IMG/VR virus record: IMGVR_UViG_3300036901_000131
Origin: a virus
Length of the DNA: 61,443 nucleotides
Strand: one strand, 5' to 3'
Part shown: in pieces, positions 7,197-54,239 of the stretch
Position numbering within the stretch: the first letter of the stretch is position 1
Layout: every line of letters starts with the position of its first letter
Translations under genes and position numbers: made by a program
The notes under the pieces: generated by a model
Seen by the model: the letters and a program-made list of their open reading frames with translations, nothing else
Databases searched by the model: none
What the model was told of the DNA's origin: nothing

Positions 7197-10079
7197 TTAT
7201 GCGTTTGCTTCGAATGTTAAAAATCCCAACCAGTTCAACTGAACGTCTTCACCCGTGACGGTGACTTGCAATTGGTTGGAGACGATTGTCAGGGTTGGTA
7301 CTGACCAGTCAGCAGCACCTCCGGTGCTGTTTTCAAGTGTGTATACAGGTGATGTTCCAATGAAGGAGTAATCTCCTGCATTATTACAGATGACGAATGA
7401 TGGTGCAAGGACAAACGTCGCCGCGTTGGTGGCATCATTGTTTATGATGATGGTTGGATCGTAACCAATGACCGATCCGGTGATTCTGGCGAGACTAAAA
7501 GCTATCAACGCCGGTAGATTGTTCGCTCCTGGAGTGTCCGAGTCCGTGGTGAGAACGACCGGAGAGACCGCATCAACACCACCAGAAAAATCGTATCCCG
7601 TAGTGCCTTGAGAACCATTGCTCATGATCGTGGAAGGACCACCGCCATTATAGCCGGTCGTGAAACCATCAGGCATGGCATTTGTGATGTCCTGCATGGT
7701 TGTCGTGACGTTACCATCGGAATCTGTCGCCAGATTGATGGTGAGATCAGGGGTTGAGAAGACGATTGAAAGGCTCTGGTTGTCGATACCAGAGGTGTCA
7801 TTGATGACGAGTACATAGCTGTTTTCGGCATTGCCCGCTGACGGTGCGGTGACGTAATAACTCCAAGGGTTGCCGGTATCACTGGTCCAATTGACCACGG
7901 CATTCGTTCCAGGGATGGTGATGCCAGAGACTTTTTGTTCATGCTTGGTTGGCGTATTGTCACAGAGATAGGACGTGGGAACGCCACGAACAACGAAATC
8001 ACCCGAACAGAAATCTCGCCCACCTCGGCCAAGAACCACAGAATTGTCATAATAGACACTAGCGTCATCGCCAATGGCGACGGCACCAGCGATGCCACTG
8101 CTGATACTACCCATGATCGCGACGTTGTTTGAACCAATCGCCTGATTACCATAGCCGATGACAATGCTTCCGAGTGCGGCATTGTTATAGGCACCAATGG
8201 CTATGCCTGAGGTGTAGCTTCTCGCATCATATCCAACCACGATACCGTAGCTTTGGGCTACGTAAGAACTCCCGCCAATTACCACCGAGCCAACTAATCC
8301 TACGCCCTTCGCTTTGCCTCCGATTGCCACCGCGCCATAGCCTTCAGAATAAGCTTTATAGCCAACGGCGATACCGCCGCTATGATCTGAAGCGGTTGCC
8401 GCTTTAAATCCGAGCGCGACCGCGTAGTTCCCCCCACAGCCAGTATAGGCACCGATGGCCACCGAACCCAGACCTGAAACGGTAGCTTGTTTGCCTATGG
8501 AGATCGCGTAGGGAGCATTGTTCGCAACTTCAAAACCAAGCGCGATGCCATATGGTTCTGAAACTGTACTGGAAGCACCAATCAAGATACCAAAAACCGC
8601 AGGACTTTCGATTTCTGAGGACAGACCGCCGATCAGGATACCGTTTGTGGCCGCATTGATGGCCGGGGTGCTCGCGAGGGTGATCGCGTTGTCTGCGGTA
8701 GAGCCTCCATAACCAATCGCGATTGCATAATTCGCTACTGCATAACTTGACTTTATGGCAAGTGAAGTATTTCCCAAGGCGACTGTGTAGCTAGATTCTC
8801 CGAAAGGGCCGCCGATTGCTATCGAGCCATTTTCCGCCTTGGCCTGACTGCCGATGGCGATTGACCAATCATCAAAAGTTTTGGCTTTGTAGCCGATGGC
8901 AATGTTAATAGAACCAACCGCGTATGACTGAGCACCGATGGCGATGTTGTAAGCAGATGCTATCGTCACATGAGAACCGATGGCGATGGAGTTTTGTCCA
9001 TAAGCTTCGACGGAATAGCCAATCGCAACAGAATAGGAGGAGTTGATTCTGTTCGACATGCCAATGGAGATTGAATGGCCGGTACCACTTTCCAGATCAG
9101 TATTACTACCGATGACCACTGATCTTTCTCCCATCGATGACGTGTAGCCGCCTATCGTGATGGCAAAATCCGCACCTGGCTGGGCGAGTATTCCAATGGC
9201 TATCGCGTTATTCGCGGAAGCATAGGATTCGCCACCAATGGCGATGCCGTAGTAATTGGTGGCATTTGCATGATCCCCAATGGCGATGGTAGAAAAGCCA
9301 GAAGAACTGGATGAGTACCCGATGGCGATCGTATTATTGTTGGTGGAATGCGCCTGTGACCCAATCCCTATCGCCTGGGGGCCGTAGGCATGAGCCTGTC
9401 GTCCAATCGCGATGGAGTTAACATAAGTTGCTCTTGAAGAATATCCTATAGATACATCGTAAGTACCAGTGGTCGTGGCATGAACACCGATGGAGATTGT
9501 GTTCTGATTACCGGCGTAGGCTTCGGCCCCGATGGCTATGGAATAATTATCAGCCACATAGGAACTCTCTCCGATGGCGATCCCGCTACTACCAGTGTTT
9601 TTAGCTGAAAGACCGATAGCAATGGACTTTTGATTGAGCGCGTAAGCCTGCGTTCCGAGCGCGACTGCATTATCCGCGTACGCATGAGTATGACGCCCTA
9701 TCGCGATGGACGCATTATAGGATGCTTTTGAAAAATATCCTATTGCCATGTCGTAAGTACCAACAGTCGTGGCATGCACGCCAATGGCTATGGTATTGTC
9801 ATAAGCGGCGTACGTTTCGGCACCAATCGCGATGCCGAAAAAATCTCTGGCATCCGCGCTCTTGCCAATGGCGATGCCACCATAATTCCCGGCTGATGCA
9901 CCTTCACCAATGCCGAAATTACCCAGTTCACTGTATCCGGTTGGCGATCCAATGTAGGTTGAAATCGCGCTGATAGTCGTTTTCGCGTTGCTGCCGCTCT
10001 GCACGACACCGAGGATTTCCGTTCCGGTCAGTGTGTCGGCGACGGGTAGCGCGGAGGTTGTTGAATTCGATCCACTCAT
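7197..10079 (-). CDS. tail fiber protein with YadA-head/Hep_Hag-like 14-residue repeats
   Basis: 960 aa. The central region is dozens of ~14-residue repeats (…NSIAIGxxAxAxGxx… with IAIG/VAIG/VALG every 14 residues), as in trimeric-autotransporter head and phage fiber beta-roll repeats. The N-terminal approximately 45 aa (ATLTGTEILGVVQ…TTISAISTY) and the C-terminal domain are shared with the adjacent 767-aa paralog. Confidence 0.7.
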   Translation of the reverse strand: MSGSNSTTSALPVADTLTGTEILGVVQSGSNAKTTISAISTYIGSPTGYSELGNFGIGEGASAGNYGGIAIGKSADARDFFGIAIGAETYAAYDNTIAIGVHATTVGTYDMAIGYFSKASYNASIAIGRHTHAYADNAVALGTQAYALNQKSIAIGLSAKNTGSSGIAIGESSYVADNYSIAIGAEAYAGNQNTISIGVHATTTGTYDVSIGYSSRATYVNSIAIGRQAHAYGPQAIGIGSQAHSTNNNTIAIGYSSSSSGFSTIAIGDHANATNYYGIAIGGESYASANNAIAIGILAQPGADFAITIGGYTSSMGERSVVIGSNTDLESGTGHSISIGMSNRINSSYSVAIGYSVEAYGQNSIAIGSHVTIASAYNIAIGAQSYAVGSINIAIGYKAKTFDDWSIAIGSQAKAENGSIAIGGPFGESSYTVALGNTSLAIKSSYAVANYAIAIGYGGSTADNAITLASTPAINAATNGILIGGLSSEIESPAVFGILIGASSTVSEPYGIALGFEVANNAPYAISIGKQATVSGLGSVAIGAYTGCGGNYAVALGFKAATASDHSGGIAVGYKAYSEGYGAVAIGGKAKGVGLVGSVVIGGSSYVAQSYGIVVGYDARSYTSGIAIGAYNNAALGSIVIGYGNQAIGSNNVAIMGSISSGIAGAVAIGDDASVYYDNSVVLGRGGRDFCSGDFVVRGVPTSYLCDNTPTKHEQKVSGITIPGTNAVVNWTSDTGNPWSYYVTAPSAGNAENSYVLVINDTSGIDNQSLSIVFSTPDLTINLATDSDGNVTTTMQDITNAMPDGFTTGYNGGGPSTIMSNGSQGTTGYDFSGGVDAVSPVVLTTDSDTPGANNLPALIAFSLARITGSVIGYDPTIIINNDATNAATFVLAPSFVICNNAGDYSFIGTSPVYTLENSTGGAADWSVPTLTIVSNQLQVTVTGEDVQLNWLGFLTFEANA

Positions 10080-13009: not shown

Positions 13010-14206
13010 TCAGTCGTCGGATGGTGTTCCGTAATAGTAGTCATTCCAGAACAAGCCACCAACGAAGTCCCGGACATGGTCGATCCTGGTCTGCGTCGCA
13101 ATGTTGTTGGCCAGACACTGCCGGATCACGGTCACCGGGTCCTGACCATCCCAGATTTTGAACGCCATGCCGCGCTCAAACTTCGGCAGGGATAAGACAA
13201 CCTCAACGGCGAATCGTTTCTTGTCACCGCACTCCTTCGCGCGAGCGACGAACACCGTCAGCATTGCCGCCTTGATCCTGATGCGTCTCTCGAACTCATT
13301 GCTGAAGTCGTCGATGGCCCGCTTGTCCTTGTCATCCATGAACTGCTTCACGTCATCAACCGTCTCATGCAGCACCAGAGCCCAGACATTCTTTTCCAGG
13401 TTCAAGGTATCCTTGGTGCCATGGATGCGGCAGTACAGGAGGGCCTTCGCCTTCACCATATGACCACTGTCGAAGCGCACGACATAGCCTTCGGCGTCCT
13501 CTAGTAATGAGGTCTCGGTTAGGAATCGCTGAATATCCTCGGCTGAGCCGTCCATCGCTCTGACGACAGGAATATGGAAGCGCGCGGCGATCTCGACCAT
13601 CGCGGGATACAGGTGATACTGACCAGAAACGTTGTGCCGGATGCCGGTCAGAGTTAGCTCGTCCTCGGGATAATCCAGCACGATGCGTTGCTTACGAGAT
13701 GTCCACTCGAAGATGGCCGTGAGACCTTCCTCGCGCATCGCCTCACAGAACGGCGCGTAGGCGTCGCCCACGGCGTCGCTGATCGGCTTGGCTACGTCGG
13801 TGGCTCCCATCTTGGTATGCCACTGCCAAGCGCCCTGACGCTTGAACGCGGTGATCATACTTCCATCCCTCTTCTCAAGGACGCGGTGCGGCATTGACCA
13901 GTCAATGATGCCCATCTGGGTCTCTGGTAACTGATTTACATTGAAGAACTTCGCATAAGGTTTTGCCACGACATCCCCTGTGCTGATGTCGAATTTGATG
14001 CCACGGCAATCGCGGCGAAGTACCGCCAGACGATGCGGCAGACCGGCCAACAACATTGGATCGGGAAAGGTCGTGGGACAGGTGAACATGTAGTTGATCA
14101 CCAGGTAGCCATTGACTTCATCACGCTTGATGATGAACTCTTCGCTACCTTCAATGGCCGGGAGATAATCCTGAATGTTGGATGCTGCTTGAAAACGATA
14201 CTTCAT
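13010..14206 (-). CDS. rnlA: RNA ligase 1 (T4 RnlA-like)
   Basis: Aligns by eye to T4 Rnl1 at DCRGIKFDISTG/ECRGIMFEMDG, PYAKFFNVNQ/PMEKFFNLNE and the nucleotidyltransferase motif I lysine (EKRDGSM/TKEDGSL). Length 398 aa against 374. Confidence 0.8.
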   Translation of the reverse strand: MKYRFQAASNIQDYLPAIEGSEEFIIKRDEVNGYLVINYMFTCPTTFPDPMLLAGLPHRLAVLRRDCRGIKFDISTGDVVAKPYAKFFNVNQLPETQMGIIDWSMPHRVLEKRDGSMITAFKRQGAWQWHTKMGATDVAKPISDAVGDAYAPFCEAMREEGLTAIFEWTSRKQRIVLDYPEDELTLTGIRHNVSGQYHLYPAMVEIAARFHIPVVRAMDGSAEDIQRFLTETSLLEDAEGYVVRFDSGHMVKAKALLYCRIHGTKDTLNLEKNVWALVLHETVDDVKQFMDDKDKRAIDDFSNEFERRIRIKAAMLTVFVARAKECGDKKRFAVEVVLSLPKFERGMAFKIWDGQDPVTVIRQCLANNIATQTRIDHVRDFVGGLFWNDYYYGTPSDD

Positions 14207-20855: not shown

Positions 20856-21437
20856 TCAGGCTTTGGCGGCTTTCATCAGATCAGCTTTGGAGATCATCGG
20901 CGCGAGGATGATCGTCATGTCGGCGTCGCCGTCAGACAACGATCTGTCGATCTTGTGATCGCCAATCGCGTGCAGGAACCGTTCGACGATTTGTCTGCCC
21001 CAGTCCCGGTGGGTGCGTTCCCGGCCTCGGAATCTCACCACCACTTTCACCTTGTCACCTTCGTCGAGGAAGCCTCTGGCGCGTTTCACCTTGATCATCA
21101 TGTCATTGTCGTTGGTGACAGGGCGCAGTTGAATTTCCTTGGTATCCACCATCATCTCGCGTTGACGTTTGGCCAATTCCTTTTCGGTTTTTTTCTTCTC
21201 GAAGCGGAATCGATCCGCGTCCAGCACCCGACAGATCGGCGGATCGGAGTCAGTCGCCCCAGGAGCCACCACGACAAGGTCAAGACCTTGGTTGCGGGCC
21301 TTTGAGAGCGCATCATGAAATGAGAAAATACCAAGTTGCCGGTCACCGTCGAGGAGACGTACCGTGCGAGCACGAATGTGCTCATTAATGACGAAATCAG
21401 TAGCCAAGTGTAAACCACATGTGTTGAAAAAATCCAA
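20856..21437 (-). CDS. infC: translation initiation factor IF-3
   Basis: INEHIRARTVRLLDGDRQLGIFSFHDA…PPICRVLD…TKEIQLRPVTNDNDMMIKVKRARGFLDEGDKVKVVVRFRGRE…MTIILAP aligns along its full length with E. coli IF-3 (INGEIRAQEVRLTG…PPVCRIMD…[20 protein letters not shown]…ITLRFRGRE…MIMVLAP). Confidence 0.85.
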   Translation of the reverse strand: MDFFNTCGLHLATDFVINEHIRARTVRLLDGDRQLGIFSFHDALSKARNQGLDLVVVAPGATDSDPPICRVLDADRFRFEKKKTEKELAKRQREMMVDTKEIQLRPVTNDNDMMIKVKRARGFLDEGDKVKVVVRFRGRERTHRDWGRQIVERFLHAIGDHKIDRSLSDGDADMTIILAPMISKADLMKAAKA

Positions 21438-21595
21438 TGAGAATGAAATTATTTATATACCATACATAACAATTGCATGTCTAAGGCTAATTTTTCTGAC
21501 AGTTGACATCCGGTCGGCCATCGGTAATCATGGCAGCGCTCTTTGAACCGTGCATCGCCTCTCCTGTCGTCCGCCCTACCGGGCGGATTCGGCTG

Positions 21596-22221
21596 TCCTC
21601 GGATGGCTTCAAAAAACGCGGGTAAGACGCGAGTATACGCACGGCCAAATGGTCACGAAAAATGTAACATGGCGCTGAACATCTCGGTTATCCTGAGGTT
21701 TGGATGGCCACGAAAATATCAGTATAAAAGCCATGTCTCGGCTATCCTCTGGATGGCCACGAAAACTAGCGCGGCACTAGGTTGCTTTTCCCTTGGTTAT
21801 CGCGAGATGGCCACGCAAAAACTTATGACTTCATACACGGCTTGATGGCCACGAAAATGAAAGGAATGCTTTGGATGATTTGGCTATCCTAGTCGGATGG
21901 CTATGAAAACGAATGGTCGAACACTGCGGGTCTCATTTTGGCCACGGAAAATAGTAGGCCGCAGCCTGGCTGTGAGGCGACTGTCCGGTTATCCTGACTT
22001 TTGGATGGCCACGAAAACAGCGTGATTTCACCGTTGCCGACTGGGCCGAGGTCTACGAAAACACCTTTGGACCGTGGGCGAGTCGGCTATCCCGTTTTGG
22101 GATGGCCACGAAAATACCAAGACACATCCCACATGTGTTTGAAGGCTATCATTCCATGATGGCCACGAAAATTATCCTGCTTCCGAGGCATACCAGAATC
22201 GGCCATCATTTTGGCTATCAG
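21596..22221. repeat. array of at least 10 degenerate direct repeats: GGYTATCC-N3-8-GGATGGCC-ACGAAAAY units separated by unique 22-33 bp spacers
   Basis: Core GGATGGCCACGAAAAY or close variants start near 21647, 21702, 21751, 21804, 21843, 21895, 21939, 22002, 22049, 22100 and 22158 (about 40-63 bp apart). Most copies carry an upstream GGYTATCC forming an 8-bp imperfect inverted repeat with GGATGGCC, whose only non-Watson-Crick positions are T.G on the plus strand. All copies share one orientation and lie between two minus-strand genes. Confidence 0.6.
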
Positions 22222-23099
22222 ACGAAGAAATCGTTGTCCACGAACATGCCGCAGGATGCCTTTACGGAAAAACCAACGCGAGGCACGATCTTGCTCCTGA
22301 CGGAGAGGCGCTCCTTGATGATCGCCAGATTTTTCTGGATCACCGGCTCCGGACTTTCGCGACTTTTCTCATTGGGCGGATTGTAGCGCACGAGGTTCAC
22401 CCGCACGTTCAGACCATACTGTTCCACCGCGTCACAGATCGCCTGCACATCGGCCTCCCGGTCATTCTCGCCGTCGATGAACGCCCAGTGCAGCACGATC
22501 TCCCGCTTCTGGGATTTCTGCCACTCGGACAACAGATCGAGGCCGTGGCCGACCGGCAGAGCCCTCGGCAGCCAGCGTTTGCGGAATTTCTCGTTCATGC
22601 TGTAGATGGAATAATAGAACTCGACCGGAGAGCCGCCGAACGCCTGTACCAGGGTGTAGCGGAAGTCCTGTGGCATGATGGTCGAGATGTTGAATTTGGC
22701 GCGTAGCCCCCTCTGGCGGGCCATGCAGGACAGACAGCCGATGATCTCCTGATTGTCCTCCAGCAGATGCGGGTTCGACAGCGCCTCGCCACGTGACATC
22801 CAGTTGACGTGCACTGAATCAGCATGGCCCTGATCATCCGCGACGGCGTCATAATAGGTCAGTACCTGCAAGGCTTGTTCGAGATACAAATCCATGTCAA
22901 CCGGCTCGAACGAAGTCTGCCCGGTGGCGGTGAGATGACACATGCGACAGGCATGCTTGCAGCCGGTGTGTGATGACAGGTAGACGATGAAGTAATCGTC
23001 CGTGCGTCGAACATAGCGGGTTTCGATGTAGCCTTCCTTCATCTGGCGGATGAAATTGACCGATCTGTCCTCATCGGACTTGAGAATGTTCCATTTCAT
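22218..23099 (-). CDS. radical SAM enzyme, RlmN/Cfr-like (short form)
   Basis: GCKHACRMCHL is the CxxxCxxC radical-SAM cluster motif. The C-terminal VNLVRYNPPNE…GFSVKASCGMFV resembles RlmN/Cfr (NLIPFNP…AACGQL, with the conserved C-terminal Cys). At 293 aa it lacks the RlmN N-terminal domain. Confidence 0.55.
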   Translation of the reverse strand: MKWNILKSDEDRSVNFIRQMKEGYIETRYVRRTDDYFIVYLSSHTGCKHACRMCHLTATGQTSFEPVDMDLYLEQALQVLTYYDAVADDQGHADSVHVNWMSRGEALSNPHLLEDNQEIIGCLSCMARQRGLRAKFNISTIMPQDFRYTLVQAFGGSPVEFYYSIYSMNEKFRKRWLPRALPVGHGLDLLSEWQKSQKREIVLHWAFIDGENDREADVQAICDAVEQYGLNVRVNLVRYNPPNEKSRESPEPVIQKNLAIIKERLSVRSKIVPRVGFSVKASCGMFVDNDFFV

Positions 23100-50815: not shown

Positions 50816-51468
50816 GGCGGAGACTCCCTGTTTTTTCCTAACGTTGATGACGGAGTCGCTTATAGCCGAGTGGAAGGAGGGAGGCAACTCATGAAAGTCG
50901 GTATCAAGCTCGACTCGGAGCACACTGAGGAAAGGCTAATTCCACCAAAACAGTGCTGATTATCTCCACTTGATCGGATCGATTCATCACAGGGATACAT
51001 GCAGGGCAATGTTCAATTCGTCTCGTGCGCGATCAATTGGGCGAAAAACGATTCCTCAAATGAAAGTGCTTTGGAGCTAATTCGGTTGGTCAAAGAGCAC
51101 GCCTGAAACGAGTTGGGAGAGAGCTTTTGGCCCTCTCCCTTCTGTTTCAAGGCTTACGGCTCACGCCGCCTCTTAAAGCCCATCCTTTCAGATTCTGCTC
51201 AGCCGCTCACGCAGCGAGAGCAAATTCCTGGGGAAGAATGTCATTATCGTTGACATCTCAGGTTTTGGACTGATCTTGGGTCGTACCTTACCCCGTGGCC
51301 ACATATCGTCCTTACTACCGAAATCGATCCTAATTTCACCCCCATAGGTCTCCAAGGGTGGAGATGCGGAGGAATGGTGGAGGTGCGGACTTGTTGCAGG
51401 TCCGGTCTTTCAGTCTATGCCACTCAGCATCTACCACGATAGTCCTGCGGTTTCCCGCCTGACAACTT

Positions 51469-51669
51469 CTATTTAGTCGATCCCCCCCGAGGACGCAAGC
51501 GAAATCCGTATTTCGTCCAGAGTTTCTCCGGTCGCGGCATCGTGCGCAATCTGCACCAGGCGGCGCTGATGGCGTTCCGATACTCGGTGTCGGTCGCGTA
51601 GTGATCGCGCGTTATCCGATCAAAACGAATCTCATTCAACATCTTGTGATAGTCAGAATAAACGCTCAT
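51469..51669 (-). CDS. hypothetical small protein
   Basis: 66-aa ORF at the edge of a long non-coding region. Confidence 0.25.
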   Translation of the reverse strand: MSVYSDYHKMLNEIRFDRITRDHYATDTEYRNAISAAWCRLRTMPRPEKLWTKYGFRLRPRGGSTK

Positions 51670-52715: not shown

Positions 52716-52875
52716 AACACGCGGAGGCGGAGGACTGATCCCCATCGGTCAGTCCTTCGTCTATACTAATAACATCAGCAAATTTAGTTCATGTTTGACA
52801 AACGATGAAATACCCTTAGTGTAGTCTGATTGTTGTTCAAATGGAGTGCACGAAGTGGCCGAAATCGATTCCCTC

Positions 52876-53307
52876 ATGACCCATGTCGCGAAAATCGTGA
52901 CGGCGTATGCCTCGAACCATCAAGTTGACGATCTTTCAGCCGTGGTCAAGAGCGTTAACGCGACGATGCGAAGTTTGAACGGCGGCGCGTCGAACGGGAG
53001 TAGCGAACCGGTGGCTCCGGCCAGACAACCACTTCAACCAGCCGTGCCACCACATAAATCCGTGTTCTCGGATTACATCGTCTGTCTGGAAGACGGCGAA
53101 AAACTGAAAATGCTAAAACGGCATCTCAGGACTTCTCATGGTATGACACCGGAGCAGTATCGTCAGAAGTGGAATTTGCCAGGCCACTATCCGATGGTGT
53201 GCCCGAATTACGCCGCGCAGCGAAGCGACCTCGCCAAAGAGCTTGGGCTCGGAACCATTGACAAGACCCCAAAGACGGTCGCCAGACGGGCGCGGAAGGC
53301 GGCTTAA
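52876..53307 (+). CDS. MucR/Ros family transcriptional regulator
   Basis: SDYIVCLEDGEKLKMLKRHLRTSHGMTPEQYRQKWNLPGHYPMVCPNYAAQRSDLAKELGLG closely matches the Ros/MucR core (IVCLECGKKFKTLKRHL…HGLTPEEYREKWGLP.DYPMVAPNYS..RS.LAK.LGLG). The second zinc-ligand Cys is Asp here. Confidence 0.7.
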   Translation: MTHVAKIVTAYASNHQVDDLSAVVKSVNATMRSLNGGASNGSSEPVAPARQPLQPAVPPHKSVFSDYIVCLEDGEKLKMLKRHLRTSHGMTPEQYRQKWNLPGHYPMVCPNYAAQRSDLAKELGLGTIDKTPKTVARRARKAA

Positions 53308-54084: not shown

Positions 54085-54156
54085 AGCTGGCGGATGGATT
54101 CGAACCCTCGACACTCTCGTAGGCACCGAGAAACTCTACCTCTGAGTTACACCAGC
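54085..54156 (-). tRNA. tRNA, anticodon GCC (Gly) by hand folding; atypical
   Basis: Minus-strand read GCTGGTG-TA-ACTC-AGAGGTA-GAGT-T-TCTCG-GTGCCTA-CGAGA-GTGTC-GAGGG-TTCGAAT-CCATC-CGCCAGC. The 7-bp acceptor has one G.U. D and anticodon stems pair, with U33 and anticodon GCC. The T-stem has one mismatch and position 37 is U. No CCA is encoded. Confidence 0.45.
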
Positions 54157-54164
54157 AGAGGTAA

Positions 54165-54239
54165 TGGAGCGGATAGACGGAAATCGAACCGTCGTCCTCA
54201 GCTTGGAAGGCTGTGGCTCTACCATTGAGCTATATCCGC
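54165..54239 (-). tRNA. tRNA-Gly (anticodon UCC), CCA encoded
   Basis: Minus-strand read GCGGATA-TA-GCTC-AATGGTA-GAGC-C-ACAGC-CTTCCAA-GCTGA-GGAC-GACGG-TTCGATTT-CCGTC-TATCCGC-T-CCA. Perfect acceptor and D stems. The anticodon loop CUUCCAA and adjoining sequence closely resemble E. coli tRNA-Gly(UCC) (CAGCCTTCCAAGCTGA, GGTTCGATT). The T-loop is 8 nt as folded. Confidence 0.55.

Follow-up and report, generated by a model that had tools for sequence, protein, structure and literature searches.

The 61,443-nt contig analysed here (IMG/VR record IMGVR_UViG_3300036901_000131; hereafter the window) derives from an uncultivated jumbo-type phage, whose genome is probably much larger, and carries on its plus strand, at 21591-22247, an array of 12-14 co-oriented units, or about 13 modules. 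A unit comprises a hairpin of variable sequence, with GGCY at the end of its 3' arm, and an almost invariant ACGAAAA tail. Probably the array is not a replication origin and instead specifies a non-coding RNA, so far undescribed, by which a host factor is engaged. A first-pass annotation, made from the sequence of the window, had described an orphan set of hairpin-plus-tail repeats with unique spacers; beyond that description, we find that the module is a family common to unrelated phages and that GGCY plus ACGAAAA, not the sequence of the hairpin, is its most conserved part.

The hairpin-tail module and its family

A sequence search combined with a repeat finder located 12 tails with no more than two mismatches to CCACGAAAA between 21653 and 22238, all on the plus strand and spaced 38-75 nt from tail to tail. 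With the additional degenerate units at both array ends (~21591-21616 and 22213-22229), this bears out the earlier count of at least 10 units in one orientation. The 12-mer TGGCCACGAAAA, allowing up to two mismatches, has 19 matches in the window compared with 6.2 ± 3.0 in shuffled sequence; every one of the 11 best lies inside the array, and the motif does not occur in the rest of the 61 kb. Seven units form hairpins with stems of 7-9 bp (GGYTATCC / GGATGGCC and variants) and four have 4-bp GGYY/GGYC stems, one of which (21839-21850) was read by eye and rejected by the hairpin finder; the end units beyond these eleven are degenerate. The full 8-bp stem once ascribed to each unit is therefore not present in every one of them. 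The accompanying statement that non-Watson-Crick positions are T.G and never A.C stands throughout the window hairpins, save for one pair in the degenerate last unit, and the alternation of C and T at the third stem position is confirmed. Segments between units, taken as the stretch separating a 7-nt tail from the hairpin that follows it, span 19-36 nt with a median of 24 (about 1 nt less if the handle is counted as 8 nt); their length is variable, as had been noted, over a range that differs from the 22-33 bp first given. No word of 10 nt or more is shared among them, so that the segments are unique, again as described. Three further metagenome contigs, one each or more from the JGI, ENA and Logan collections, carry this array base for base, indicating a stable feature of the phage population and no assembly artefact.

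Motif scans of public collections recovered arrays of the same module in several other phages, with 7 to more than 29 units per array. The related jumbo phages L204/L205 carry three, on both strands, amounting to more than 40 units in one genome: array A, of at least 29 units, is cut off by the end of the contig, and arrays B and C are convergent on opposite strands, C lying directly downstream of a homologue (52% identity) of a major-vault-protein (MVP)-like gene of the window. In L206, which shows synteny with the window through its ATPase, Hsp20, IF-3 and ClpX homologues, the array occupies a different intergenic gap. L210/L211/L276 represent a temperate phage of ~23 kb whose genes include those for a large serine recombinase, a Gp77 adaptor and a baseplate protein of the Mu-gp48 type, and L045, an unplaced contig with unrelated flanks, has at least 10 units. 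The most regular array, on the temperate-type contig L283 (encoding PolA, gp32 and a recombinase), comprises 11 units of the form CAGCCCT-loop-AGGGCT-ACGAWAAC with a period mostly of 59-66 (range 51-75) and unique segments of ~30-45 nt, just upstream of an HNH endonuclease gene. Spacing between units in L204 ranges from 10 to 155, and inter-unit segments across the family from 12 to 70 nt. No protein common to the jumbo clade and the temperate phages was detected in the stretches examined.

Units from the window and the family arrays were pooled (78 for conservation, 79 for stem tests and 89 once L283 was added). Across the 78 units the conserved core is GGCY followed by ACGAAAA (11 nt), the next base and all downstream positions being free; an upstream 5' arm pairs with the sequence ending in GGCY, forming stems of 4-10 bp whose left arms differ from unit to unit. 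Tail-anchored stems of at least 5 bp are present in 41 of 79 units on the sense strand (Watson-Crick plus G.U), compared with 13 of 79 under the antisense-equivalent rule (Watson-Crick plus A.C), a mean of 7.3 (maximum 19) after shuffling the left flank and a mean of 25.4 (maximum 35) after swapping left arms between units, the last of which indicates that arms match within each individual unit. With L283 included, the count is 51 of 89.

Counting outward from the base of the stem, pair 1 is A-U in 23 units, G-C in 9 and G-U in 9; pair 2 is an invariant G-C; pairs 3 and 4 are each C-G in 27 and U-G in 14; pair 5 is A-U in 31, C-G in 9 and U-A in 1; and pair 6 is U-A in 21, C-G in 5 and A-U in 1. 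Loops measure 3-11 nt in these units and reach 12 nt elsewhere in the family. Because this variation in loop length made a MAFFT alignment of the left arms impossible, we counted pairs in a register anchored on the tail, and because the closest relatives have no array, covariation was taken from paralogous units and the arrays found by motif scan. The covariation score was 0.515, against 0.324 ± 0.024 in shuffles, none of 500 of which reached that value, and 15 cells were changed on both sides against 4.8; as the units had been pre-selected for pairing, the figure of 100% paired is itself uninformative. When both wobbles were allowed equally, G.T exceeded A.C by 57 to 12 on the array strand. 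Folding of the whole window array gave -238 kcal/mol (z = -5.05) for the plus strand, with all canonical window hairpins in the centroid, and -213 kcal/mol (z = -2.24) for the minus strand. The earlier proposal of RNA-type hairpins on the plus strand thus gains support from wobble asymmetry, compensatory changes and fold scores, as well as from the transcription signals described below, and covariation, the analysis of which it had suggested, is present across the units of the family. Since the tail stayed invariant and the stems compensatory while the intervening DNA diverged beyond recognition, the module appears to be under purifying selection.

A proposed trans-acting RNA and its competitors

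The sigma-70-like promoter candidate that points into the array (Table 1) lies 60 nt upstream of the first unit, and can alternatively be read as TTGACA-N14-GGTAATCA. Upstream of array C in L204 stands TTGACC-N14-GGTATAAC, with the same TTGACM -35 box and similar spacing, and both sites fit TTGACM-N14-GGTAWWMA, which we take to resemble the alphaproteobacterial housekeeping promoter consensus; L204 array B likewise has a TTGACC promoter-like site upstream in the sense orientation. At the other end, in L283, a 10-bp GC-rich hairpin and U-run follow the last unit within 20 nt on the same strand, forming a canonical intrinsic terminator (9648-9680, plus strand; GGAACGGCC-uucg-GGCCGUUUUUU) that a consensus terminator scan missed and folding made plain, and the L206 array ends at a strong 10-bp GC hairpin. 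Five of the seven arrays first characterised (L283 uncounted) are antisense to neighbouring genes. Taken with the strand-specific wobble pairs, these signals make a discrete sense-strand transcript the most economical reading. From the consensus signals we infer that the window array is transcribed from the plus strand, as a putative single non-coding transcript antisense to the IF-3 and radical-SAM genes that flank it.

The interpretation we prefer, held tentatively and with somewhat less than even confidence, is that this is a cas-less, CRISPR-like, promoter-driven RNA array that acts in trans on an RNA-binding or RNA-processing protein, probably of the host, as a decoy and/or a supply of guides. 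The repeat family is there in the sequence, with its covarying strand-specific hairpin, its invariant tail and its spread across phages; the partner protein, and the decoy or guide role, we infer. A plus-strand transcript starting at the promoter near 21503-21531 would contain about 13 modules, each with a hairpin of free sequence and loop, a 3' arm ending in GGCY and, directly after it, a single-stranded ACGAAAA, and unconstrained segments of 19-36 nt would separate them. Every module would offer a site for binding, and probably for processing, by an RNA-binding protein with specificity for both sequence and structure, which would read the tail together with the helix foot. The array might then work mainly as a multivalent decoy that titrates this protein, making it a counter-defence RNA; in a closely related alternative, it would yield small RNAs akin to CRISPR RNAs (crRNAs) that re-programme the same protein.

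Several patterns point in this direction. An invariant tail, a conserved stem base with persistent U.G, a covarying stem and a free loop suggest an RNA read by a protein at the tail and helix foot; Cas6 and Cas5 read crRNA repeats in this way, and the same pattern of conservation is predicted for them. Since phages that are unrelated, and have no protein in common over the stretches examined, carry one and the same module, the most likely partner is a host protein. The module also occurs in unrelated phages from like samples, is absent from close relatives and is shifted in syntenic genomes, suggesting accessory counter-defence cargo with a host-encoded partner. In the closest relative by neighbouring genes (77% amino-acid identity), radical-SAM and IF-3 are only 94 bp apart, with no array, and in relatives at 75% and 64% radical-SAM identity the gap holds small open reading frames (ORFs), again with no array; we therefore regard the site as an insertion hot spot. 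Arrays grow by local duplication, as seen in common segment prefixes in L204B and repeated 17-nt units in L211, and are unchanged between samples. This growth and constancy, together with bare tails and segments of 12-70 nt, fit a set of binding sites, selected for their number and accessibility, better than acquired guides.

The host is probably an alphaproteobacterium, as judged from the known distribution of two families encoded in the window, a Ros/MucR regulator and an alpha-type transfer-messenger RNA (tmRNA). Ros/MucR regulators are typical of Alphaproteobacteria; the one here is a zinc-finger protein (52846-53307, plus strand; Pfam E = 1.5e-43) and, besides being a clue to the host, possibly a xenogeneic-silencing mimic. 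The tmRNA, which is of the two-piece (permuted) type, and two tRNA-Gly genes (GCC, UCC) adjacent to each other are encoded at 51131-51502 and 54085-54239 (both minus strand); the tmRNA was called by Rfam and missed by ARAGORN.

Other observations weigh against the proposed trans-acting RNA. About 40% of family units have no convincing hairpin, and some are bare copies of GGCTACGAAAA 10-19 nt apart, which suit binding sites and are unlike guides. Neither a partner protein nor any protein common to all array-bearing phages was found, and as the window covers 61 kb of what is probably a much larger genome, the partner may be encoded by the phage outside it. No Rfam family, the CRISPR-DR models among them, matched the region even at E = 10, and the inter-unit segments, whose comparison with host and phage genomes the first-pass annotation had suggested, had no match in the loci examined, in INPHARED phages or in PLSDB plasmids, databases that are small relative to the environment. 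Promoter calls by consensus matches are near chance (3 found, 1.4 expected). Finally, G.T wobble would stabilise a hairpin of single-stranded DNA too, and the sequence would be compatible with such a role. Searches of the array region also gave no DNA match among cultured phages and no tRNA or tmRNA, and a literature search for the motif returned primers only.

A more specific version of the RNA hypothesis, less likely than not yet a real possibility, is that hairpin-GGCY-ACGAAAA is the ligand of a so far uncharacterised host system, RNA-binding or RNA-guided, which would probably belong to Alphaproteobacteria of peat or soil. Unrelated phages would each have acquired arrays of this ligand independently and enlarged them, in one genome to more than 40 copies. 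Were this true, the arrays would constitute a new class of RNA counter-defence, acting as a sponge or as a guide scaffold that has been hijacked, without derivation from catalogued CRISPR repeats. If the array serves as a decoy or guide scaffold, the invariant core of 11 nt would provide a handle with which to fish for the partner, by RNA pull-down or host-genome co-occurrence, and the partner so recovered might point to a host RNA-binding defence that is new or to a CRISPR type that is divergent. Should the array be a DNA element instead, it would be an unusual, strand-specific one; the module is easily searchable in both cases.

Among the alternatives, a working guide array of the CRISPR type, or of another RNA-guided kind, survives best, although we consider it unlikely. 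The unique segments would here be guides and ACGAAAAY an 8-nt 5' handle, with processing at the hairpin or tail and loading into a host effector, or into a phage effector encoded outside the window, aimed at host genes or rival mobile elements. Its appeal lies in the succession of hairpin, 8-nt A-rich tail and unique segment, in the nearly regular 11-unit array of L283 with its terminator, in the promoter-like sites upstream of the window array and of L204 B and C, and in the precedent of virus-borne cas-less arrays that exploit host Cas proteins. The tail presumably also resembles the 3' ends of CRISPR repeats, at 7/8 positions for Cas13a (...GGGGACUAAAAC) and 5/8 for type I/III (AUUGAAAC). 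However, the repeats are degenerate (loop length 3-12 nt, stem length 4-10 bp); the spread of segment lengths and the closely set bare tails fit guides poorly; identical arrays in different samples imply no spacer turnover; L204B and L211 grow by duplication, not acquisition; and the collections searched above yielded no protospacer. As the first-pass annotation had said, a CRISPR-like layout of degenerate repeats is present and cas genes are not: no Cas family was found among the 79 ORFs of the window by PADLOC and Pfam (among the first 25 of 29 families listed), and none was seen in L204, L206, L276 or L283.

A cis-acting DNA element that is bound in duplex or extruded form, such as an iteron origin, a partition centromere or an array recognised by terminase (pac/cos), is improbable. 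A cluster of direct repeats in a large non-coding island beside an AT-rich stretch would suit it, F-plasmid sopC-type centromeres are repeat arrays with inverted repeats, and the HNH endonuclease gene downstream of the L283 array is a typical neighbour in packaging modules. The phasing of roughly five helical turns suggested earlier is, however, not borne out (Rayleigh test p > 0.08 for periods of 9.5-12, 73 spacings). The loop, hence the half-site spacing, runs from 3 to 12 nt, so that arm-to-arm distance varies by up to 9 bp, unfit for half-site dimer binding, and the arms covary rather than keep their sequence, with strand-asymmetric wobble pairs. Arrays of relatives lie at differing places and on both strands, with three arrays and more than 40 units in one genome, a shifted position in syntenic genomes and none in the closest relative. 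No Rep, ParA or ParB family was found in the window (first 25 of 29 families listed). The resemblance of the left arm to a DnaA box is likewise lost outside the window, the TTATCC arm being replaced in relatives by AGTCACCC or AGCCCT with pairing kept.

Slightly less probable still is a selfish or neutral repeat of the REP/BIME, NIME or MITE-like kind that expanded locally and has no phage function. Such a repeat would explain hairpin-forming units in intergenic DNA, their variable copy number and position, the evidence of local duplication and their occurrence in unrelated genomes. On the other hand, units are not dispersed, single ones being absent from the 61-kb window, from L212 (~17 kb) and from L206 (~13 kb); all units within an array are co-oriented; the invariant tail and compensatory stems amid diverged DNA signify purifying selection; and no RAYT or IS200-type transposase was found (first 25 of 29 families listed). 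The only exception to array confinement in the phage sequence examined is a solitary hairpin-tail unit in L211 (3269-3296), a singleton ~800 nt upstream of the L211 array that resembles a solitary repeat unit (SRU) and is preceded, as that array is, by a GTTCTTTGACA leader.

Pseudo-ToxI repeat expansion lets a phage escape ToxIN, and cleavage at A-rich sites is a property of enzymes of the ToxN family. Mimicry of a type III antitoxin in this manner, by an array whose units would be cut at the A-rich tail by a host ToxN/AbiQ-type endoribonuclease and neutralise it, is very improbable: the promoter-array-terminator arrangement and the A-rich motif at each unit boundary agree with it, whereas real antitoxins have a fixed length of ~34-45 nt and fold and contact the toxin as whole units, units here vary from 10 to 155 nt with only ~11 nt and a generic stem conserved, and no toxin gene lies downstream, nor any same-strand ORF downstream in the window.

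Simpler readings were rejected. The core RTGGCYACGAAA can be read as M-A-T-K, and repeated promoters each followed by a small ORF had been named as an outcome that would overturn the hairpin array; yet the start codon is missing in ~40% of units and the ATG/GTG of the 3' arm is absent from all units of the L211, L206 and L283 arrays, spacings are not multiples of 3, and frames run through several units. DnaA boxes fail because the TTATCC arm is not conserved in the family, and a CsrA sponge because GGA is not conserved. For minus-strand terminators, the T-run would precede the conserved hairpin, and occasional hairpins in segments alone were flagged.

Features and genomic setting of the array

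The array occupies a 780-bp island without a credible ORF between two minus-strand genes, identified as in the first-pass annotation: IF-3 (20856-21437) and an RlmN/Cfr-like radical-SAM gene (22218-23099), whose stop codon is overlapped by the last two degenerate units. An AT-rich stretch (21420-21500) adjoins the island. The individual elements are listed in Table 1.

Table 1. Predicted elements of the array island, in window coordinates; sequence after a plus sign is the tail
Feature	Coordinates	Strand	Remarks
Sigma-70-like promoter candidate, TTGACA-17-AATCAT	21503..21531	+	10/12 consensus matches; points into array
Leader hairpin, TCCGCCC-tacc-GGGCGGA	21570..21587	+	between promoter candidate and first unit; not conserved in relatives
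Unit 0, degenerate: GGCTGTCC tc GGATGGCT + TCAAAAAA	21591..21616	+	stem mismatches G.T only
Unit 1, short hairpin: GGCC aaat GGTC + ACGAAAAA	21643..21662	+	
Unit 2: GGTTATCC tgaggttt GGATGGCC + ACGAAAAT	21686..21717	+	in minimum-free-energy and centroid folds
Unit 3: GGCTATCC tct GGATGGCC + ACGAAAAC	21740..21766	+	
Unit 4: GGTTATC gcga GATGGCC + ACGCAAAA	21795..21820	+	
Unit 5, short hairpin: GGCT tgat GGCC + ACGAAAAT	21839..21858	+	read by eye
Unit 6: GGCTATCC tagtc GGATGGCT + ATGAAAAC	21882..21910	+	
Unit 7, short hairpin: GGTC tcatttt GGCC + ACGGAAAA	21929..21951	+	
Unit 8: GGTTATCC tgactttt GGATGGCC + ACGAAAAC	21987..22018	+	
Unit 9, weak hairpin: (GGGC cgag GTCT) + ACGAAAAC	22043..22062	+	
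Unit 10: GGCTATCCC gtttt GGGATGGCC + ACGAAAAT	22085..22115	+	
Unit 11: GGCTATCAT tcc ATGATGGCC + ACGAAAAT	22144..22172	+	inner pairs altered on both sides relative to other units
Two degenerate terminal units: GGCTATC ag ACGAAGAA; TGTCC ACGAACAT	22201..22247	+	

The gap between the radical-SAM and IF-3 genes (21438-22217 in the window) is hypervariable. It is reduced to the 94 bp noted above in L028 (5877-5970), and its content in L032 (5889-7220) and L033 (1242-5929) differs, with two or three ORFs in one relative and, in another, a NUMOD3 homing-endonuclease gene alongside some ten small ORFs.

Further neighbours of the array are ClpX, Hsp20 and ClpS genes, and the window also encodes type II topoisomerase subunits; cultured phages show only distant protein similarity to it. 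The MVP-like gene encodes a 921-aa protein (27291-30056, minus strand) with major-vault-protein shoulder and repeat domains. Homologues with 34-54% identity to it are encoded on 33 jumbo-phage contigs of IMG/VR, the longest reaching 500 kb; in the neighbourhoods of these genes, arrays were found in L204/L205 only. A gene for a T4 Rnl1-type RNA ligase (13010-14206, minus strand) suggests that the phage may counter tRNA-cleaving host defences. In keeping with a counter-defence role, the gene that separates arrays A and B of L204 (2380-3138, minus strand) is of a conflict type, encoding an ART-PolyVal ADP-ribosyltransferase, and the window encodes an ADP-ribosylglycohydrolase at 833-1738.

The scans that recovered the family returned other repeats as well. 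Of what double-tail scans of metagenomes and genomes returned, L045 alone was real and the rest were satellites and tandem repeats without relation to the family, and a single-unit scan gave chance matches in coding sequence. A triple-tail scan of viral contigs gave unrelated arrays, among them clusters in which copies of the palindrome CCACGAAAATCGTGG recur every 20-24 bp up to an AT-rich stretch, in the IMG/VR contigs L251 (around 6803-6918, minus strand), L263, L264, L245, L247, L254 and L258; in contrast to the hairpin-tail array, these look like duplex operator or origin iterons. In L209 (13050-13580), copies of a 52-bp repeat containing GGCTACGAAAAA flank a small gene; they are iteron-like and unrelated to the hairpin-tail family.

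Comparison with described systems

Judged by definition, the array is neither a canonical CRISPR array nor an iteron origin or centromere, and it does not qualify as a REP element, a ToxI antitoxin or a CsrB sponge either. Canonical CRISPR arrays of types I-C/I-E/I-F and VI-A are alike in placing a hairpin directly before an ~8-nt A-rich tail, in having a leader promoter (a candidate here), a single orientation and unique segments, and in the conservation pattern of invariant tail, covarying stem and free loop; the tail presumably also resembles the CRISPR repeat ends ACUAAAAC or AUUGAAAC. They require, however, near-identical direct repeats of 23-50 nt, where only 11 nt are invariant here. 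Their period is regular and their spacers uniform in length; the hairpin-tail arrays have unique segments and a period of 38-75 in the window and 51-75 in L283, but of 10-155 in L204. The hairpin-tail arrays differ further in lacking cas genes and spacer turnover between samples, and in growing by duplication.

Iteron origins and sopC/parC centromeres share the clustering of direct repeats in a non-coding island, and sopC contains inverted repeats; the hairpin-tail arrays differ in having no helical phase, variable arm spacing, strand-specific wobble, no adjacent Rep or Par gene, several arrays per genome and a position that varies among relatives. REP/BIME elements have many dispersed copies and a Y1 transposase, whereas the hairpin-tail motif is confined to arrays in the phage sequence examined, apart from the solitary unit described above. 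Protein-sponge RNAs (CsrB/RsmZ, CrcZ) and phage pseudo-ToxI resemble the array, if it is transcribed, in carrying many copies of a short protein-binding motif per transcript, in their variable copy number and spacing and in their unconstrained inter-motif sequence. CsrB/RsmZ nonetheless present GGA in loops or single strands, whereas GGA in the window lies in the 3' stem arm and is GGG or AGG in relatives; the module has no (ARN)n tract; and ToxI has a fixed unit length, which is variable here.

RNA anti-CRISPRs (Racr) are solitary repeat units that match a known CRISPR repeat (PMC10651486). The window array resembles them as a putative small intergenic hairpin RNA of a phage just downstream of a promoter (a candidate here), with proposed titration of a host RNA-binding complex, and L211 has one solitary unit beside its array. 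Racr units are by definition solitary, with no repeat within 100 bp, whereas the window has 12-14 clustered units. Viral crRNA-like arrays (Cracr) are cas-less, with 2-3 spacers and pseudo-spacers of 21-24 nt (bioRxiv 10.1101/2024.10.29.618823). Both they and the hairpin-tail arrays are phage-borne, cas-less, promoter-driven (by a candidate promoter in our case), built of several units with degenerate hairpins, accessory and variably present, and both have short unique segments, a match that is one of form only. Production of crRNA-like small RNAs would be compatible with the regular arrays of the window and L283, and the window segments of ~24 nt would match Cracr pseudo-spacers. Cracr repeats are, however, recognisably like the host CRISPR repeat, and Cracr pseudo-spacers are complementary to a host cas or toxin promoter, whereas no known repeat family or cas-promoter target was matched to the hairpin-tail arrays; these also differ in comprising 7 to more than 29 units, with widely variable loops and stems and some bare tails.

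By analogy, then, the nearest described systems are Racr, viral Cracr arrays and virus-borne mini-CRISPR arrays, with which the window array would share the formal layout only. More generally, the known phage RNAs that disarm host immunity (Racr, Cracr and pseudo-ToxI) form a small and very recent class, found through similarity to known repeats, whereas the hairpin-tail family was found without a known-repeat template, is large, occurs in both jumbo and small temperate phages and bears clear marks of structural selection.

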